Part shown: positions 10,690 through 16,001 of the stretch, piece after piece
How positions within the stretch are numbered: the first letter of the stretch is position 1
Layout of the letters: every line of letters begins with the position of its first letter
From: Escherichia coli
Lineage (GTDB): Bacteria; Pseudomonadota; Gammaproteobacteria; Enterobacterales; Enterobacteriaceae
NCBI RefSeq assembly: GCF_024298765.1
Contig: NZ_CP101210.1
Direction: 5' to 3' (one strand)
Length of the DNA stretch: 64,000 bases
Notes under the pieces: generated by a model
Told to the model about the DNA's origin: nothing
The model's input: only the letters and a program-made list of their open reading frames with translations
The model's database searches: none
Translations under genes and position numbers: made by a program

Positions 10690-12219
10690 ATGAGACGGGC
10701 AATCAGCTACATCAGATTTTCAAGTGAACGACAACTAAAAGGGGACTCTGTACGCAGACAATCTAAGCTGGTCACTGACTGGCTTGATAAGAACCCTGAG
10801 TTTTACTTGGATTCATCCTTGAGCTTTAAAGATTTGGGGAAAAGTGCTTTTAGTGGTAAGCACTTGAAAGGTGGCTTAGGTGACTTTTTAACCGCTATCG
10901 AGAAAGGGCTTGTTAAAGCTGGTGATACACTACTAATCGAGAGTTTAGACCGTCTCTCACGTCAGGATATTGATATTGCTTCTGAGCTATTACGTCGTAT
11001 CTTAAGGGCTGGTGTAGATATAGTCACACTGAGCGATGGTGAACATTACACACGAGAAAGTTTAAAAGACCCGTTATCCCTGATTAAAAGCATTCTGATA
11101 ATGCAGCGGGCGCATGAGGAAAGTCTGAGGAAGTCTGAGCGTGTCCAAGCTGCATGGAACCGTAAAAAAGAACTCATCTCCGAAGGTATCAAGGTATCTA
11201 GGCGTTGTCCTGCATGGTTAAGGCTGAATGATGACCGTCGAACATTCACTATCATCCCCGATAAAGTGGAAGTTGTTAAACGAGCATTTGACCTGAGATT
11301 ACAGGGTTTAAGCTTTTGGGCTATCACCAGAACTTTAAACGATGAAGGCCACTTGTCATTGAATCAATACACACCTAAACAAAAGGGATGGTCTGATACT
11401 GCTGTAAAGAAACTACTCAGAAATCGTGCTGTGATTGGATGTTTCACACCTGCTGGACGTGAAGAAGTTCAGGGTTACTACCCCGCAATAATCAGTGAGT
11501 CACTATTCTATCGAGTACAGCAACTGAACACAGGGCAATATGGTAGGGCTTCTGTATCAAGTAATCCGCTATCAGTCAACTTGTTCAGGGGTATCATCAA
11601 ATGTTCTGAGTGTGGGGCTACTATTGTTCTTGGTGGATATGCCTTAAAACGTTTTGGGATGTACAGATGCCCTAATCGTTCAGCTAACAGGTGTAGTGCA
11701 AAGGCTATCAGTCGTAAGCAAACGGATACAACTATCCTTTACATGCTCGCATTATGCGACCGTTTTGAAACTGAAAATACTGACACTATTGATAGCCTTA
11801 AATTACAGCGTGAAGATTTGCAGCGTAAAATCTCAAAAATGGCAGAACTCGCTATTGAACTCGATGACATGACAATTATCACAGAGAAATTACGTGATAT
11901 GAAGAATGCGCTATCAAAACTCAATCATGATATCGAAGAGGAAACAAAGCGGATAAAGGCCATCACAACTGGAAGCCTCAAAGATATTGACAGGACAACA
12001 AAGGAAGGGATGATAGAGACACAGCTACTTATCAAGGGCGTACTCAAAGAAATAGTTATAGATGCCGCTAAACGTCGCTGTAAAGTGACTTTTCACAACG
12101 GTAAGGTAATTGACCTACCTATAACAGAAAACCCCTCAGAGGACGTTACAGAGGCCATACAGTCGCTTTCTGAAGTCACTGAGAGGGGTTTAATAGATGT
12201 TGATGTAGTAGCGATTTAG
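10690..12219 (+). CDS. Large serine recombinase (integrase-type)
   Basis: About 509 aa: N-terminal resolvase-type catalytic domain (AISYIRFSSERQ with the candidate Ser nucleophile; SLDRLSRQ), a Cys-rich zinc-ribbon-like segment (CSECGATIVLGG...YRCPNRSANRCS) and a C-terminal predicted coiled coil. ATG at 10690 preceded by AGGT. Confidence 0.8.
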   Translation: MRRAISYIRFSSERQLKGDSVRRQSKLVTDWLDKNPEFYLDSSLSFKDLGKSAFSGKHLKGGLGDFLTAIEKGLVKAGDTLLIESLDRLSRQDIDIASELLRRILRAGVDIVTLSDGEHYTRESLKDPLSLIKSILIMQRAHEESLRKSERVQAAWNRKKELISEGIKVSRRCPAWLRLNDDRRTFTIIPDKVEVVKRAFDLRLQGLSFWAITRTLNDEGHLSLNQYTPKQKGWSDTAVKKLLRNRAVIGCFTPAGREEVQGYYPAIISESLFYRVQQLNTGQYGRASVSSNPLSVNLFRGIIKCSECGATIVLGGYALKRFGMYRCPNRSANRCSAKAISRKQTDTTILYMLALCDRFETENTDTIDSLKLQREDLQRKISKMAELAIELDDMTIITEKLRDMKNALSKLNHDIEEETKRIKAITTGSLKDIDRTTKEGMIETQLLIKGVLKEIVIDAAKRRCKVTFHNGKVIDLPITENPSEDVTEAIQSLSEVTERGLIDVDVVAI

Positions 12220-12358
12220 TATCTCTTATTAGGATTCACTGAGTACTTTTTAAGCTTTGAAGCTACCCGACCAGCGTTACTGTTAGCATTGGTGAGGTTG
12301 GTTTTTTCAGCTTCTTCACAAAAAAGCTTCAGAGGTCTTCTTAACCATCCGCTAAGCA

Positions 12359-12402
12359 GGAGAGAGGGTGGTACATGAGAAAGAACCCTCACTTCTAAAA
12401 AG
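12359..12402 (+). repeat. Copy A of recurring element motif GAGAGAGGG-N-ACCCT-N-AAAAG
   Basis: ggagagagggtggtacatgagaaagaaccctcacttctaaaaag; contains the inverted repeat GAGGG...CCCTC; about 140 bp after the large recombinase stop. Confidence 0.5.
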
Positions 12403-12807
12403 ATTTTTTAGCTATTTTGCTTAAAACCATATCAAAAGATACATTTTATTGATTCAGGTCAAAGACAAAAGCATTGACAAAATGGTAAAATTGTTCACAT
12501 GACCTTACTTAACAGACTTTTTAAGAGCTTTTGAGAAGCTTGTTGAACAGACACTCTTTCTGGAGTGTTGTCTTTTACTTAAGAGGTTTGTTTAGATAAC
12601 TCTCAAGGCATCTCTTAAGAATCACTGTTAAGGTGATACTCTCCCTTCGGGTTATATCGTATCTCTTCTCCCGTTAGACAGTTTTTCCTAGCAACTTCAT
12701 AGTTATCTGTCAAGTGCCTTTGAAGATTCCATCAAGACCTCTGAATCTGACCTGATATAGATGCTGTGAAGGCATATTCTCTAGGTCTGTGTAGCTTACT
12801 TAGTGGG

Positions 12808-12853
12808 AAGAGAGGGATATAGTGACCATAGGGGAACCCCTCCTGTTAAAAAG
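12808..12853 (+). repeat. Copy B of the recurring element motif
   Basis: aagagagggatatagtgaccataggggaacccctcctgttaaaaag; same GAGGG...CCCTC arrangement, same orientation. Confidence 0.45.
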
Positions 12854-13356
12854 ACTACTTAGAAGTCTGAGACTTTAGTAAAATCTGTGAATATAGCTTC
12901 TCAGACGCTCTGTAACGCATTCTAAGCGATTTTACCACCTTATTTTAAGGTGGGTGGTACATCCCTATAGGTTACCCTAAAAATGGGGTTAAAACTCGCT
13001 ACAGAGCTTTCTATGAGGCTTGGTAGAGTTGCATAAATTTTACACAACACTTATTCAGCTTCTAAATTTTTTTATAAAAAATCGTAGTAACCCCTCTACA
13101 TTCCCCTTCACCGATAATCTTCAAAAATATCTATCACAGGTCTATACCTGCTAAGTACCCGTCACTACGCCTAAGTGGTCCCCTTTGCAAAATTTTAAAA
13201 TATCTATTGACTTTTTATGTGAACTGTTATAAAGACCGCTCCATCTCTTAGGCATACCGTTATAGCATACTAAAAAGGTATAGCTAACCCCCTGTAAAAA
13301 CCATACCGATTAGCCTTGTAAAACACTTTATCGGTACATTATACTCAACTCATCAA

Positions 13357-13926
13357 ATGAGTAAGGCAAATGAGTATATTATGGCTAACATTGGTTATAT
13401 CCGAGTTTCATCAATCCAGCAGATTACAGACCGTCAACTTGAAGGGGTCGTACTGGATAAGATATTTACTGATAAAGCATCTGGGAAGAATACAGACCGT
13501 CCACAACTAAAGGCTATGCTCGATTATGTTCGTGAAGGTGATGTTATCCATGTACACGACTTGTCACGTTTAGGGCGCTCTACCGTGGATGTATTAACGC
13601 TGGTGGATAAACTTTCACAGAAAGGTATCAAGGTTCACTTTCACAAAGAAGGTCTGATAACTGGTGACGATAACCCCACGTCTAAGATGATTCTCACAAT
13701 CTTTTCAGCAGTGGCTGAAGCTGAACGTAAAATGATGCTTGAGCGTCAACGAGAAGGCTATGAAGCTGCTAAAGCTGCTGGTCGTGTAGTTGGAAGGGGT
13801 AACGGTAAAGCGGTTGACAGAGAAGGTATTAAAGCTGCTCTTGCTGCTGGTGGTTCAATCGCTAAAGTAGCCGCTCAATTCAACGTTGCCAAGTCAACTG
13901 TACAGCGTATTAAAGCTGAAGATTAA
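13357..13926 (+). CDS. Small serine recombinase, resolvase/invertase type with C-terminal HTH
   Basis: 189 aa; GYIRVSSIQQ catalytic motif, IFTDKASG and LSRLGRS motifs typical of Tn3/gamma-delta-type resolvases, C-terminal HTH (IAKVAAQFNVAKSTVQRI). Alternative start ATG at 13381. Confidence 0.82.
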   Translation: MSKANEYIMANIGYIRVSSIQQITDRQLEGVVLDKIFTDKASGKNTDRPQLKAMLDYVREGDVIHVHDLSRLGRSTVDVLTLVDKLSQKGIKVHFHKEGLITGDDNPTSKMILTIFSAVAEAERKMMLERQREGYEAAKAAGRVVGRGNGKAVDREGIKAALAAGGSIAKVAAQFNVAKSTVQRIKAED

Positions 13927-13939
13927 GTCAGGAAATACA

Positions 13940-14623
13940 TTAGATTTTTCTTCCAAATAAACTTGGGAGATTCTTACGGTTTCTTGCTTGCATCATTATT
14001 TCTGGGCTAACAAGTTTTTTTAATTCGCTTCTGTACTCATCAATAGAACACTCATCCGCAACAAGTTTTGAAATCAGGTCTTCAATAGACATAACATCTT
14101 GTTGCAGGAAATCAAGTTCACGAGACAAGTGCTTTTTTTGATTCTCTAACTTTCCTATCTCAGCATTTAAGTTATCTACATCTGTCGCCAATTTCTCTGC
14201 CTGAGATTTCAAATTACTTGTATCTTCTTTTTCTCTTTCGATAAGGTTTTTTTGTTTCTCAATCTTCAACTTTGACGTCAGTCTAGCTGACTCTTCAAGA
14301 TTTTCAGCTTCTACTTTTTGTCTTGCTCGCCATGCGGTTGCCTTGATTTGAAGTAGTGTTACAAGGTTGCTGAAGTAAGGGAAAAAGGTCGCCAAAATGA
14401 ACCCTAGCCCTACGGGATAGCATAATGTTTTTAGATAGAAGTCTTCCGTCGATGTGATTTGTTGAATACGAGTAACAACCGAAGCCTCACTAAGACACAT
14501 GATAGCAATGCTTTTCCAGTTAAATCCCACCCATGACAAAATGATGTAGCCCCATAAAGGGTTAGCTACTCGTTCCTTCAACGCCTGCTTAACTGATTCC
14601 GTGATACTTTCTTCACTACTCAC
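13940..14623 (-). CDS. Hypothetical protein with two N-terminal hydrophobic segments and a C-terminal predicted coiled coil
   Basis: 227 aa ORF confined to the insertion; hydrophobic segments WGYIILSWVGFNW and PVGLGFILATFFPYF, then a K/E-rich heptad-like region; no family recognised. Confidence 0.6.
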   Translation of the reverse strand: MSSEESITESVKQALKERVANPLWGYIILSWVGFNWKSIAIMCLSEASVVTRIQQITSTEDFYLKTLCYPVGLGFILATFFPYFSNLVTLLQIKATAWRARQKVEAENLEESARLTSKLKIEKQKNLIEREKEDTSNLKSQAEKLATDVDNLNAEIGKLENQKKHLSRELDFLQQDVMSIEDLISKLVADECSIDEYRSELKKLVSPEIMMQARNRKNLPSLFGRKI

Positions 14624-14714
14624 AATTACTGCTCCATAGAAAACTCTGGTTTGAGAAATTTTAATGCGAATCCAATCAGTTAGATAGACCTGTAAATAGC
14701 AATTTTATAGAAGT

Positions 14715-14756
14715 CGAGAGAGGGATGACTAACACCCTGCATAGTTTCCTGAAAAG
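14715..14756 (+). repeat. Copy D of the recurring element motif
   Basis: cgagagagggatgactaacaccctgcatagtttcctgaaaag; same orientation; about 95 bp upstream of the minus-strand 227 aa gene start. Confidence 0.45.
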
Positions 14757-14954
14757 AGACTTCGCATATTATCTATATATTTCAATAAGTTATGCTAAAA
14801 AGGAACTATACCAATACTGCATAGATTCTGCGTAAAACTGCTTGGATACTTGGAAATCCACCATTAAATTGCATAGTCATTCACCTGATAAAGCCTGTTA
14901 TTAACAGGTGATAGGATTCGGATGTTCTCATAGTGTATTTAGGGAATTAATATC

Positions 14955-16001
14955 AGCATTACATTTTTATTTTCGGCCATCGCCTCACCGTTTTGGGGTG
15001 GACTCGCCGACCGTAAAGGCCGAAAACTCATGCTATTACGCTCTGCCCTCGGCATGGGCATCGTGATGGTGTTGATGGGACTGGCACAAAATATCTGGCA
15101 GTTTTTGATCCTGCGGGCGCTTCTTGGGTTACTTGGCGGATTTGTCCCCAACGCTAATGCTCTTATCGCCACACAAGTACCGCGTAATAAAAGCGGCTGG
15201 GCGCTGGGTACGCTCTCCACAGGCGGCGTTAGTGGTGCGTTGCTCGGCCCAATGGCTGGCGGCCTGCTCGCCGATAGCTACGGCTTACGTCCGGTATTCT
15301 TTATTACCGCCAGTGTGCTCATACTCTGCTTTTTCGTCACCCTGTTCTGCATCAGAGAAAAATTCCAGCCGGTCAGCAAAAAAGAGATGCTGCACATGCG
15401 GGAAGTGGTGACATCACTTAAAAACCCGAAACTGGTACTCAGCCTGTTTGTCACCACGTTAATCATCCAGGTGGCGACAGGCTCAATTGCCCCCATTCTG
15501 ACGCTGTATGTCCGCGAACTGGCGGGTAACGTCAGTAACGTCGCCTTTATCAGTGGCATGATCGCCTCGGTGCCAGGCGTGGCGGCTCTGCTAAGCGCAC
15601 CACGACTCGGCAAACTTGGCGATCGAATCGGACCCGAAAAGATCCTGATTACAGCGCTGATCTTTTCTGTACTGCTGTTGATCCCAATGTCTTACGTTCA
15701 GACGCCATTGCAACTTGGGATTTTACGTTTTTTGCTCGGTGCCGCCGATGGTGCACTACTCCCCGCCGTACAGACACTGTTGGTTTACAACTCGAGCAAC
15801 CAGATCGCCGGGCGTATCTTCAGCTATAACCAATCGTTTCGTGATATTGGCAACGTTACCGGACCATTGATGGGAGCAGCGATTTCAGCGAACTACGGTT
15901 TCAGAGCGGTATTTCTCGTCACCGCTGGCGTCGTGTTATTCAACGCAGTCTATTCATGGAACAGTCTACGTCGTCGTCGAATACCCCAGGTATCGAACTG
16001 A
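14955..16001 (+). pseudogene. mdtG: mdtG 3' fragment (C-terminal ~348 codons), separated from its 5' part by the insertion
   Basis: In frame from 14955: [43 protein letters not shown]... to ...[13 protein letters not shown], recognised as the remainder of MdtG; no start codon or RBS in native context. Confidence 0.85.

Follow-up and report, generated by a model that had tools for sequence, protein, structure and literature searches.

A 227-residue membrane/coiled-coil protein in the optional cargo slot of an mdtG-inserted element of Escherichia coli is a candidate phage exclusion factor

The question raised by this locus is what a protein of 227 amino acids (aa), to which no function has been assigned, does in a small mobile element that interrupts the mdtG gene of Escherichia coli. 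The element lies in a stretch of 64,000 nucleotides of contig NZ_CP101210.1 (assembly GCF_024298765.1), the whole of which is referred to here as the window. An original prediction, made from the letters of this DNA, had described a membrane/coiled-coil protein of no recognised family, the only non-recombinase cargo of a recombinase-driven element, and had proposed a selfish or defensive function such as superinfection exclusion, an abortive-infection-like effector or a membrane toxin. We were able to show that the protein is intact, under selection, optional, modular and probably membrane-associated, and that it occupies a slot for genes acting in the carrier cell and not in the cycle of the element. 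The reading that we favour, quite possible if somewhat short of probable, is that of an exclusion or abortive-infection factor that stands alone, belongs to a new family and is composed of a conserved membrane executor, an oligomerising stalk and a variable cytoplasmic sensor head.

The gene and its signals are as follows:

13940 to 14623, minus strand: the 227-aa gene, with a GTG start, taken from the list of open reading frames (ORFs); it encodes an N-terminal module, a continuous helix and a C-terminal helical head.
14632 to 14635, minus strand: Shine-Dalgarno sequence GGAG, 8 nt 5' of the GTG, read from the sequence.
14702 to 14731, minus strand: candidate promoter of its own, TAGTCA-18-TAAAAT, a consensus match only (9/12).

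The ORF was present as originally described, on the minus strand and with a GTG start, and it is a genuine gene, more than a chance reading frame, as seen from its ribosome binding site, its ratio of nonsynonymous to synonymous substitutions (dN/dS), its homologues with their invariant residues, and the predicted local distance difference test (pLDDT) of its structural model. In RefSeq, identical copies are called 'hypothetical protein' (WP_001723372.1) by the Prokaryotic Genome Annotation Pipeline (PGAP). The dN/dS was 0.065 against the copy of GB089 and 0.17-0.24 against the alleles of NC101 and Citrobacter (codons 1-125); the gene is therefore kept by selection. A terminator for it was looked for in this region of the window and was not found.

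Hydropathy, charge count and an AlphaFold model agree with the earlier description of two hydrophobic N-terminal segments followed by a charged, heptad-like region. The Kyte-Doolittle maxima over 19 residues are 1.41 (residues 23-45) and 1.67 (residues 67-93). A crude Hessa-type scale gives +4.2 for the best 19-mer of segment 1 and +2.7 for that of segment 2, compared with -3.9 to +3.0 for the transmembrane (TM) helices of MdtG from the window and at least +7.1 for soluble controls. Judged by these scores, segment 2 appears TM-like and segment 1 marginal, lying between the membrane and the soluble controls; association of the protein with the membrane is likely, and a two-pass topology is only a candidate. 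A basic stretch, KATAWRARQK, follows helix 2, and the family averages 3.8 K/R in the 15 residues at this place, a mild charge bias that favours a cytoplasmic C-terminus. Extracytoplasmic or secretion features were not seen in the protein.

The AlphaFold2 model, run with 80 homologues, has a pLDDT of 93.8 and places helices at residues 2-20, 22-34, 36-44 and 49-57, an unbroken helix at 62-188, and two more at 194-204 and 207-217. The N-terminal module (residues 1-93) thus holds an amphipathic helix and two hydrophobic helices, the second of which runs without a break into a charged helix of ~95 residues that ends at residue 188. Helix 62-188 is modelled at a pLDDT of 96-98 and combines great length with heptads, as a coiled coil does; the heptad score peaks at about residues 143-170, with 7/8 hydrophobic a/d positions in the windows that start there, and residues 94-227 contain 26 K/R and 25 D/E. 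Matches to the coiled coil alone are numerous in Pfam and the PDB. The C-terminal head of the window allele (residues 194-217) is a short helical bundle.

A HMMER scan of 1.84 billion cluster representatives returned 983 clusters at 50% identity with E<=1e-3, 67 of them with E<=1e-10. The 80 aligned homologues span 191-379 aa (up to ~380); their first ~95 residues are conserved, while the coiled coil and the C-terminus are variable. N35, W36, P70 and P82 are invariant among them, and R18, P22 and G25 nearly so. The statement that no family could be recognised holds for Pfam, NCBIfam, PADLOC and the PDB. PHROGs does contain the family, in groups of unassigned function: the protein is a member by direct sequence matches to phrog_4780 (E=2.1e-16, residues 5-204) and phrog_13369 (E=5.8e-16), and in total five groups (4780, 13369, 8191, 22645 and 35327) are matched at E-values of 2e-16 to 1e-9 over residues ~3-204. 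The other alleles of the slot described below and the relatives from phages and plasmids match the same groups, with E-values down to 5e-135. These groups carry no annotation and so no functional information; PHROGs treats them as five families, which here form one superfamily with a common N-terminal module.

Remote homology and fold searches, which the original prediction had proposed, were carried out with profiles, AlphaFold2 and Foldseek, and yielded only uncharacterised relatives or coiled-coil noise. Pfam, searched with the protein and the 80 homologues, gave coiled-coil noise and no domain, and profile searches of NCBIfam and the PDB with the 227-aa protein gave noise of the same kind or nothing, with no fitting family. 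Foldseek with the model of the protein had no informative match in BFVD or the PDB; in AFDB50 only uncharacterised relatives were found, from Enterobacterales, Vibrio, Shewanella, Idiomarina and several Bacteroidota. None of the searches returned homology to a housekeeping family, a result that would have spoken against a selfish or defensive role. A search of the literature for the family accessions, for serine-recombinase insertion in mdtG and for TM/coiled-coil prophage defence found nothing relevant.

About 18 of the 150 representatives listed share a C-terminal domain with the motif 'Y.FT.KG..FW', modelled in the order helix-helix-helix-hairpin-helix (H-H-H-beta-beta-H). The best PDB matches of its profile are winged-helix DNA binders, namely AspA (E=0.009) and PadR, HxlR and MarR (E 0.2-1.5). 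A winged-helix-like domain in these relatives would hint at a cytoplasmic C-terminus and at a head that serves as an exchangeable module.

The position of the gene in its element is more telling, and is defined by the following features:

10651 to 14952, no strand: inserted element of ~4.3 kb that splits mdtG, delimited by alignment of the flanks to the uninterrupted mdtG of K-12.
13357 to 13926, plus strand: small serine recombinase of the resolvase/invertase type, 189 aa (PGAP start 13381), matching phrog_125 'DNA invertase' with E=2e-58.
14679 to 14952, no strand: att-proximal arm, common to full-length mdtG elements without the cargo gene (blastn of 14679-15300: A1 88%, E110019 93%).

In strains A1 and E110019 this mdtG site is occupied by a full-length element of ~11.7 kb, with the gene order large serine recombinase, Dit-like 'baseplate' protein, tape measure, several small ORFs, helix-turn-helix (HTH) protein, ORF-free stretch of 1-1.5 kb, small serine recombinase and att arm. 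The HTH protein matches replication-initiator PHROGs. In neither full-length element is the small recombinase separated from the att arm by a gene, and since homology with these cargo-less elements resumes at 14679, the cargo insertion can be placed at ~13927-14678 (~750 bp). The original prediction had held that absence of the gene from other copies of the element would speak against a selfish or defensive function, and the mdtG copies of A1 and E110019 do lack it; from this absence it follows that the gene is dispensable for the element and has no core selfish function. The picture of a minimal recombinase-driven element with a sole cargo had to be given up as well: by alignment, the window element is an internally deleted copy of the ~11.7 kb element with its replication and tail genes. 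The gene is literally the only non-recombinase cargo of this copy, but a 96-bp remnant of the baseplate-like gene and 1.1 kb of ORF-free DNA are also present.

Relatives of the element occur at lafU/flhA, yciI and ymdF-rutG; another lies in an Enterobacterales contig from a food metagenome that also encodes a tyrosine integrase. Five sister elements that are complete or nearly so (A1, E110019, OkiPb01716, 02E060 and APEC O18) have nothing in the slot, and at least seven have it filled, which is the presence/absence pattern of a moron. Where it is filled, the family gene and the small recombinase gene meet tail-to-tail and either overlap or are separated by 0-13 bp. The alleles of the slot are:

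GB089: 227 aa, 99.6% identity to the window protein.
NC101 and Citrobacter: 241 aa, 64% identity to the window protein.
PAR and L017: 234 aa, 39% identity to the window protein.
C7: 262 aa, 39% identity to the window protein.

The DNA of the NC101 and window alleles is ~94% identical up to codon ~125-130 and falls to background beyond, and the C7 allele joins a 39%-identical N-terminal module to a C-terminus of the NC101 type. Because identity to NC101 breaks at codon ~125 and C7 combines a divergent N-terminus with an NC101-type C-terminus, the N- and C-terminal modules are shuffled by recombination within the coiled coil, as expected of a specificity determinant.

The small recombinase of the window has 96-98% aa identity to those of GB089, C7, PAR and L017, and the small recombinases that adjoin the family gene in E. 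coli fall into at least three clades, with 30-38% identity between clades. On the IncF plasmid pIncFIB (L006, 5992-9136) and at the IMG/VR loci L035 and L037, distant relatives adjoin small serine recombinases that belong to yet other clades (30-39% identity with the window recombinase); on pIncFIB, recombinase and family gene are parted only by an ISKra4 insertion. The recurrent adjacency may be functional or may reflect only joint residence in variable ends. An inversion of the small recombinase in E110019 was considered and rejected, as that gene belongs to a third, unrelated recombinase clade (36-38% identity). Phase-variable expression through the small recombinase was likewise considered: a 15-nt inverted repeat (14664-14678/14909-14923, 87% complementary) flanks the candidate promoter and was judged to be a chance occurrence. 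Its right arm lies outside the region shared with GB089, where homology ends at 14839, and the single-piece copies H2, H3, H5 and H6 are all collinear with the window.

In E. coli NC101 and ~20 other genomes (L025, 5803-11212) the lafU-site element has undergone an internal deletion of its own, which has removed the tape measure gene and the greater part of the Dit-like gene and has left the recombinases, the HTH gene and the family allele. As the deletions of the window and of NC101 are independent, the cargo end has survived the decay of an element more than once. In yciI-site elements of E. coli and Citrobacter (L026, 8571-9236; L027, 8646-9311; L009, 7060-7725) the family gene has a neighbour for a 221-aa protein, hydrophobic at its N-terminus; this protein has no match in PHROGs or PADLOC, and its gene may be a second cargo of the same slot.

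The distant relatives (21-37% identity) are lone genes in phages, plasmids and a phage-plasmid. No conserved partner gene was found: 13 homologues were compared, and the genes on either side of them proved unrelated except in phages of the same lineage. The relative is encoded on the opposite strand in the ninB-replication gap of two lambdoid Klebsiella phages, outside their annotated holin-endolysin(-spanin) cassettes, and again on the opposite strand in the terminase-portal interval of two epsilon15-like phages. Podovirus-like prophages have it between their scaffold-like and capsid genes, as an insertion bordered on either side by gaps of 100-260 bp. On plasmids and a phage-plasmid it comes right after RelBE, HigBA or DUF1778/GNAT toxin-antitoxin pairs, and on a Pantoea plasmid it is flanked by ardA/methyltransferase and umuCD. 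In a P2-like prophage the relative P0040 is placed exactly in the interval from Phage_GPA to the portal gene gpQ, the locus of old and tin, which is a hotspot of anti-phage systems (Rousset et al., 2022; PMC9122126). The family accessions are absent from the supplementary tables of the same study (PMC9122126). Crude ORF calling was applied to IMG/VR loci; of the 20 that have two neighbours, 13 have one or both of them on the other strand, and the seven co-directional cases show gaps of 89-419 bp. Most phage and plasmid contexts show opposite-strand placement or flanking gaps; as to transcription signals of its own, the window copy offers the weak 9/12 promoter match only. Taken by gene order, the placement of the relatives looks moron-like.

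It is because of this moron-like placement, the gpA-gpQ old/tin locus included, that a defensive or exclusion role is the leading hypothesis. The earlier proposal of selfish or defensive cargo has accordingly survived in part: an accessory, variable slot and moron-like relatives have brought exclusion to the front, and the membrane toxin has been weakened, with neither an antitoxin nor a conserved partner to be found. As an exclusion factor, the protein would reside in the inner membrane, its N- and C-terminus both probably cytoplasmic, and its gene would be transcribed from its own promoter during quiescence of the element. It would be cargo that benefits the carrier, outside the machinery of transposition, replication and packaging, and would exclude phages or other mobile elements in the manner of superinfection exclusion or abortive infection. 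The variable C-terminal head would recognise a cue of the invader, the coiled-coil stalk would mediate oligomerisation, and the conserved membrane module would act as executor, making the membrane permeable or preventing the entry of DNA.

Several observations weigh against an exclusion function. No member of the family is homologous to a defence protein, so that the link to defence is one of genomic behaviour only; in PADLOC-DB v2.0.0, the protein and nine relatives matched only coiled-coil stretches of LmuB, JetC, PbeC and DruC (E>=2e-5, residues 90-221). Kinship with the P22 exclusion proteins was tried and rejected, as hhalign gave probabilities of 0.4% with SieB and 1.8% with SieA, and the Pfam SieB family (PF14163) matched neither the query nor the 80 homologues. 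Both hydrophobic helices are only moderately hydrophobic by the crude insertion scores, Pfam gives no support for a winged-helix C-terminal domain, whose assignment rests on weak E-values, and promoter-like sites around the gene are no more numerous than expected from shuffled sequence, which makes the promoter call weak. The P2 hotspot placement concerns a single locus. Finally, the slot was seen either empty or with this family only (sometimes together with the 221-aa gene), unlike a mixed general defence hotspot, and such a monothematic slot could instead mean an element-specific function.

Among known systems, SieA of P22 and SieB of P22 and lambda are, like the protein studied here, small to medium in size and encoded by lone genes, and they are associated with the inner membrane, as the protein studied here probably is. 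In the P22 annotation their genes have an own promoter, lie on the strand opposite to the surrounding operon and are expressed from the prophage, a genomic behaviour similar to that of the family; they have no similarity to its long stalk or exchangeable head. The old and tin cargo of P2 offers a parallel in position, since P0040 occupies the same locus and the window gene likewise lies in a short slot of high turnover near the att/cos end of a small element; the family is not homologous to Old, Tin or any PADLOC model. The TM effectors of abortive infection (CBASS, Pycsar, the 2TM effectors of retrons, and RexB) share with the family a short membrane module that could permeabilise the membrane. 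The effectors of CBASS, Pycsar and 2TM retrons and RexB need a separate sensor or signal-generating partner. Unlike them, the family has no conserved partner and would sense through its own C-terminal head. TM proteins are believed to be suicide effectors (PMC9122126).

The element itself deserves a description, as its origin bears on what its cargo might do. The window is an E. coli chromosome segment with yceI, trhO, lpxL, mdtG, msyB, opgH and opgG, and its GC content falls to 0.38-0.42 across 11-15 kb. Besides the features given above, the insertion comprises:

10469 to 10650, plus strand: 5' fragment of mdtG, by alignment to K-12.
10684 to 12219, plus strand: large serine recombinase of 511 aa (PGAP start 10690), the integrase of the element, matching phrog_95 'integrase' with E=1e-80, with weak XisF/Ccr matches in NCBIfam.
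12219 to 12314, minus strand: remnant of the Dit-like 'baseplate' gene, its last 32 codons (96 bp), with 96.9% aa identity by tblastn to residues 238-269 of the A1 protein.
12394 to 13356, no strand: ORF-free region (1.1 kb) inherited from the parent element, with blocks conserved in sister elements.
14953 to 16001, plus strand: 3' fragment of mdtG, by alignment to K-12.

The junctions share a 4-bp TCAG overlap (10647-10650 on the attL side, 14953-14956 on the attR side), and attB in the mdtG of K-12 reads GTCTTCAG/CATTAC. A terminal recombinase, a short overlap and an intact empty site elsewhere identify an integrative element of the large-serine-recombinase kind. mdtG is cut after ~61 codons and PGAP annotates both halves as pseudogene fragments; carriers are presumably without a functional MdtG efflux pump. 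The flanks were matched by 5425 of 5426 complete E. coli genomes, six of which had a single match over at least 80% of the 4.9-kb query (99.6-100% identity). Two of the six element copies are split by insertion sequences (IS), and two further E166 assemblies, at 75% coverage, have an ISEc52 insertion. The large recombinase has 96.7% DNA identity to that of the full-length mdtG element of strain A1. Homology by blastn between the window and A1 stops at 12315, and the Dit-like remnant marks the left edge of the internal deletion. In the att-proximal arm common to the full-length elements, positions 14881-14911 form a perfect-looking 11-bp stem with a 9-nt loop (TCACCTGATAA...TTAACAGGTGA), which may be a candidate binding site for the integrase or an accessory factor.

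The parent-element family measures ~11-12 kb and was found at no fewer than four E. coli sites (mdtG and the three named above), at loci L003 (20291-31820, strain A1), L004, L002, L026, L027 and L009, with remnants in the window at 10651-13356. Virulent myophages of the Felix O1-like group encode, immediately 3' of their tape measure gene, a protein (gene 0018 of Bas63) to which the Dit-like protein of the parent element has 76% identity, and 253 phage records match the Dit-like protein at >=80% coverage. The best matches of the element's tape measure are those of Felix O1-like phages (30% identity, full length), and the tape measure and Dit-like genes are syntenic with genes 0017/0018 of Bas63.

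The ORF-free region includes three segments:

12394 to 12856, no strand: conserved block X, from comparison of sister elements.
12903 to 13010, no strand: strongly folding segment, from fold z-scores.
13049 to 13236, no strand: conserved block Y, with a -35/extended -10-like motif facing the small recombinase (TTGACT at 13207-13212, TGnTATAAA at 13225-13233).

Blocks X and Y are 68-86% conserved in sister elements, even beside recombinases that are only 30-38% identical. Block Y contains a small hairpin with compensatory changes, and an 84-bp piece of it (13121-13204) has 74-77% identity to intergenic DNA of ~28 Ounavirinae genomes; the block may be a candidate helper-responsive promoter or operator. 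A segment of ~105 nt within 12890-13015 has RNA fold z-scores of -3.6 on the plus and -5.0 on the minus strand; it recurs elsewhere, inverted, in full-length elements, with one compensatory stem change. The 42 bp at 12890-12932 have 88-91% identity to intergenic or terminal-repeat DNA of ~25 T5-like Salmonella phages. Rfam gave no credible match for a structured RNA and ARAGORN no tRNA in the 1.1-kb ORF-free region, nor were conserved protein remnants found at 12394-13356; an Rfam match to NRON at 14828-14953, outside this region, was dismissed as chance.

Because Felix O1-like tail genes and a non-coding match occur together with a serine integrase, a replication-initiator-like gene and an ORF-free region, the parent element has the appearance of a satellite, so far undescribed, of Felix O1-like phages. 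In outline it is similar to the Vibrio PLE, which likewise combines a large serine recombinase, a replication initiator and an ORF-free region with relatives in virulent myophages. In the literature, the combination of 'satellite' with Felix O1 names retrieved no paper containing the word 'satellite', and 'satellite' with tape measure gave nothing relevant. The satellite reading frames the 227-aa gene as optional cargo of a satellite-like element and does not establish its function.

A rival reading is that of a modulator of lysis timing. A holin-, antiholin- or LidI-like protein might shift the lysis of a helper-infected cell for the benefit of the element. Two hydrophobic N-terminal helices with a highly charged tail are a holin-like layout, weak PHROG matches through the coiled coil lead to 'hol-like' and Rz-like spanin families, and the parent element resembles a satellite of virulent phages. 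The Vibrio PLE satellite encodes LidI, a small two-TM protein that collapses lysis inhibition. LidI has about half the size of the window protein and lacks a coiled coil, the two are not known to be related in sequence, and the window gene is optional in its element family. With 227-380 aa the family is far above the size of holins (<~150 aa, in a lysis cassette), it was never found in a lysis cassette of the phages examined, plasmids that are not phages carry it too, and at least five otherwise complete or near-complete sister elements do without it. A role in lysis timing is therefore unlikely.

Membrane tethering of element, plasmid or phage DNA, for maintenance, segregation or anchoring of replication, with the stalk presenting a DNA-binding head, would give a meaning to the winged-helix-like head of some members, the best PDB match of which is the archaeal segregation protein AspA (E=0.009). 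On plasmids and phage-plasmids, several homologues have replication or partition genes in their vicinity, and the family gene recurs beside small serine recombinases of the resolvase type from at least four or five clades. The head of the window allele, however, is a short helical bundle and not winged-helix-like, sister elements dispense with the gene, and the swapping of heads between alleles of otherwise similar elements fits changing targets better than binding of the element's own DNA. We regard a tether as improbable.

To the same degree improbable is a lysogenic-conversion factor unrelated to phages (envelope, stress or colonisation) or a neutral passenger of a slot prone to recombination. 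Not every moron is defensive, the carriers of the element include avian, porcine and human E. coli, and no function has been assigned to the gene. Against neutrality stand the spread over diverse phages, plasmids and phyla, the conserved N-terminal module and a dN/dS well below 1; against a conversion factor, the lack of extracytoplasmic or secretion features and the hotspot contexts, which favour conflict among mobile elements. A selfish or addictive membrane toxin, which would secure the element through post-segregational killing and is suggested by a small, probably membrane-associated protein, by plasmid relatives that often adjoin toxin-antitoxin modules and by retention of the gene in the two independently deleted remnants of the window and NC101, is very improbable, because the window has no adjacent antitoxin ORF and the 13 homologues no conserved partner, as a type II toxin-antitoxin system would, Rfam shows no antisense-RNA signature, the neighbouring toxin-antitoxin pairs are already complete, and purifying selection with exchange of the C-terminal module is unlike a simple toxin.

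The exclusion factor thus remains the reading that we prefer. A more far-reaching form of it, which we consider doubtful, is that the gene is an exchangeable exclusion or specificity cassette of undescribed PLE-like satellites of virulent Felix O1-like phages, and founds a new and widespread class of single-polypeptide defence with a conserved membrane-executing N-terminus, a coiled-coil stalk and a swappable sensor head that is winged-helix-like in some members. If the satellite lead is true, E. coli would harbour a new satellite-helper system. The family is of broader importance, since its ~1000 clusters at 50% identity occur in phages, phage-plasmids, plasmids and islands from Enterobacterales to Bacteroidota and have no Pfam entry, solved structure or annotation. 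The alleles of the slot, in which the same N-terminal module is combined with different heads and the reverse, form a natural series suited to the mapping of specificity. Placement in a defence slot together with the shuffling of modules makes the 227-aa protein a well-defined candidate for a new single-gene mode of phage exclusion.

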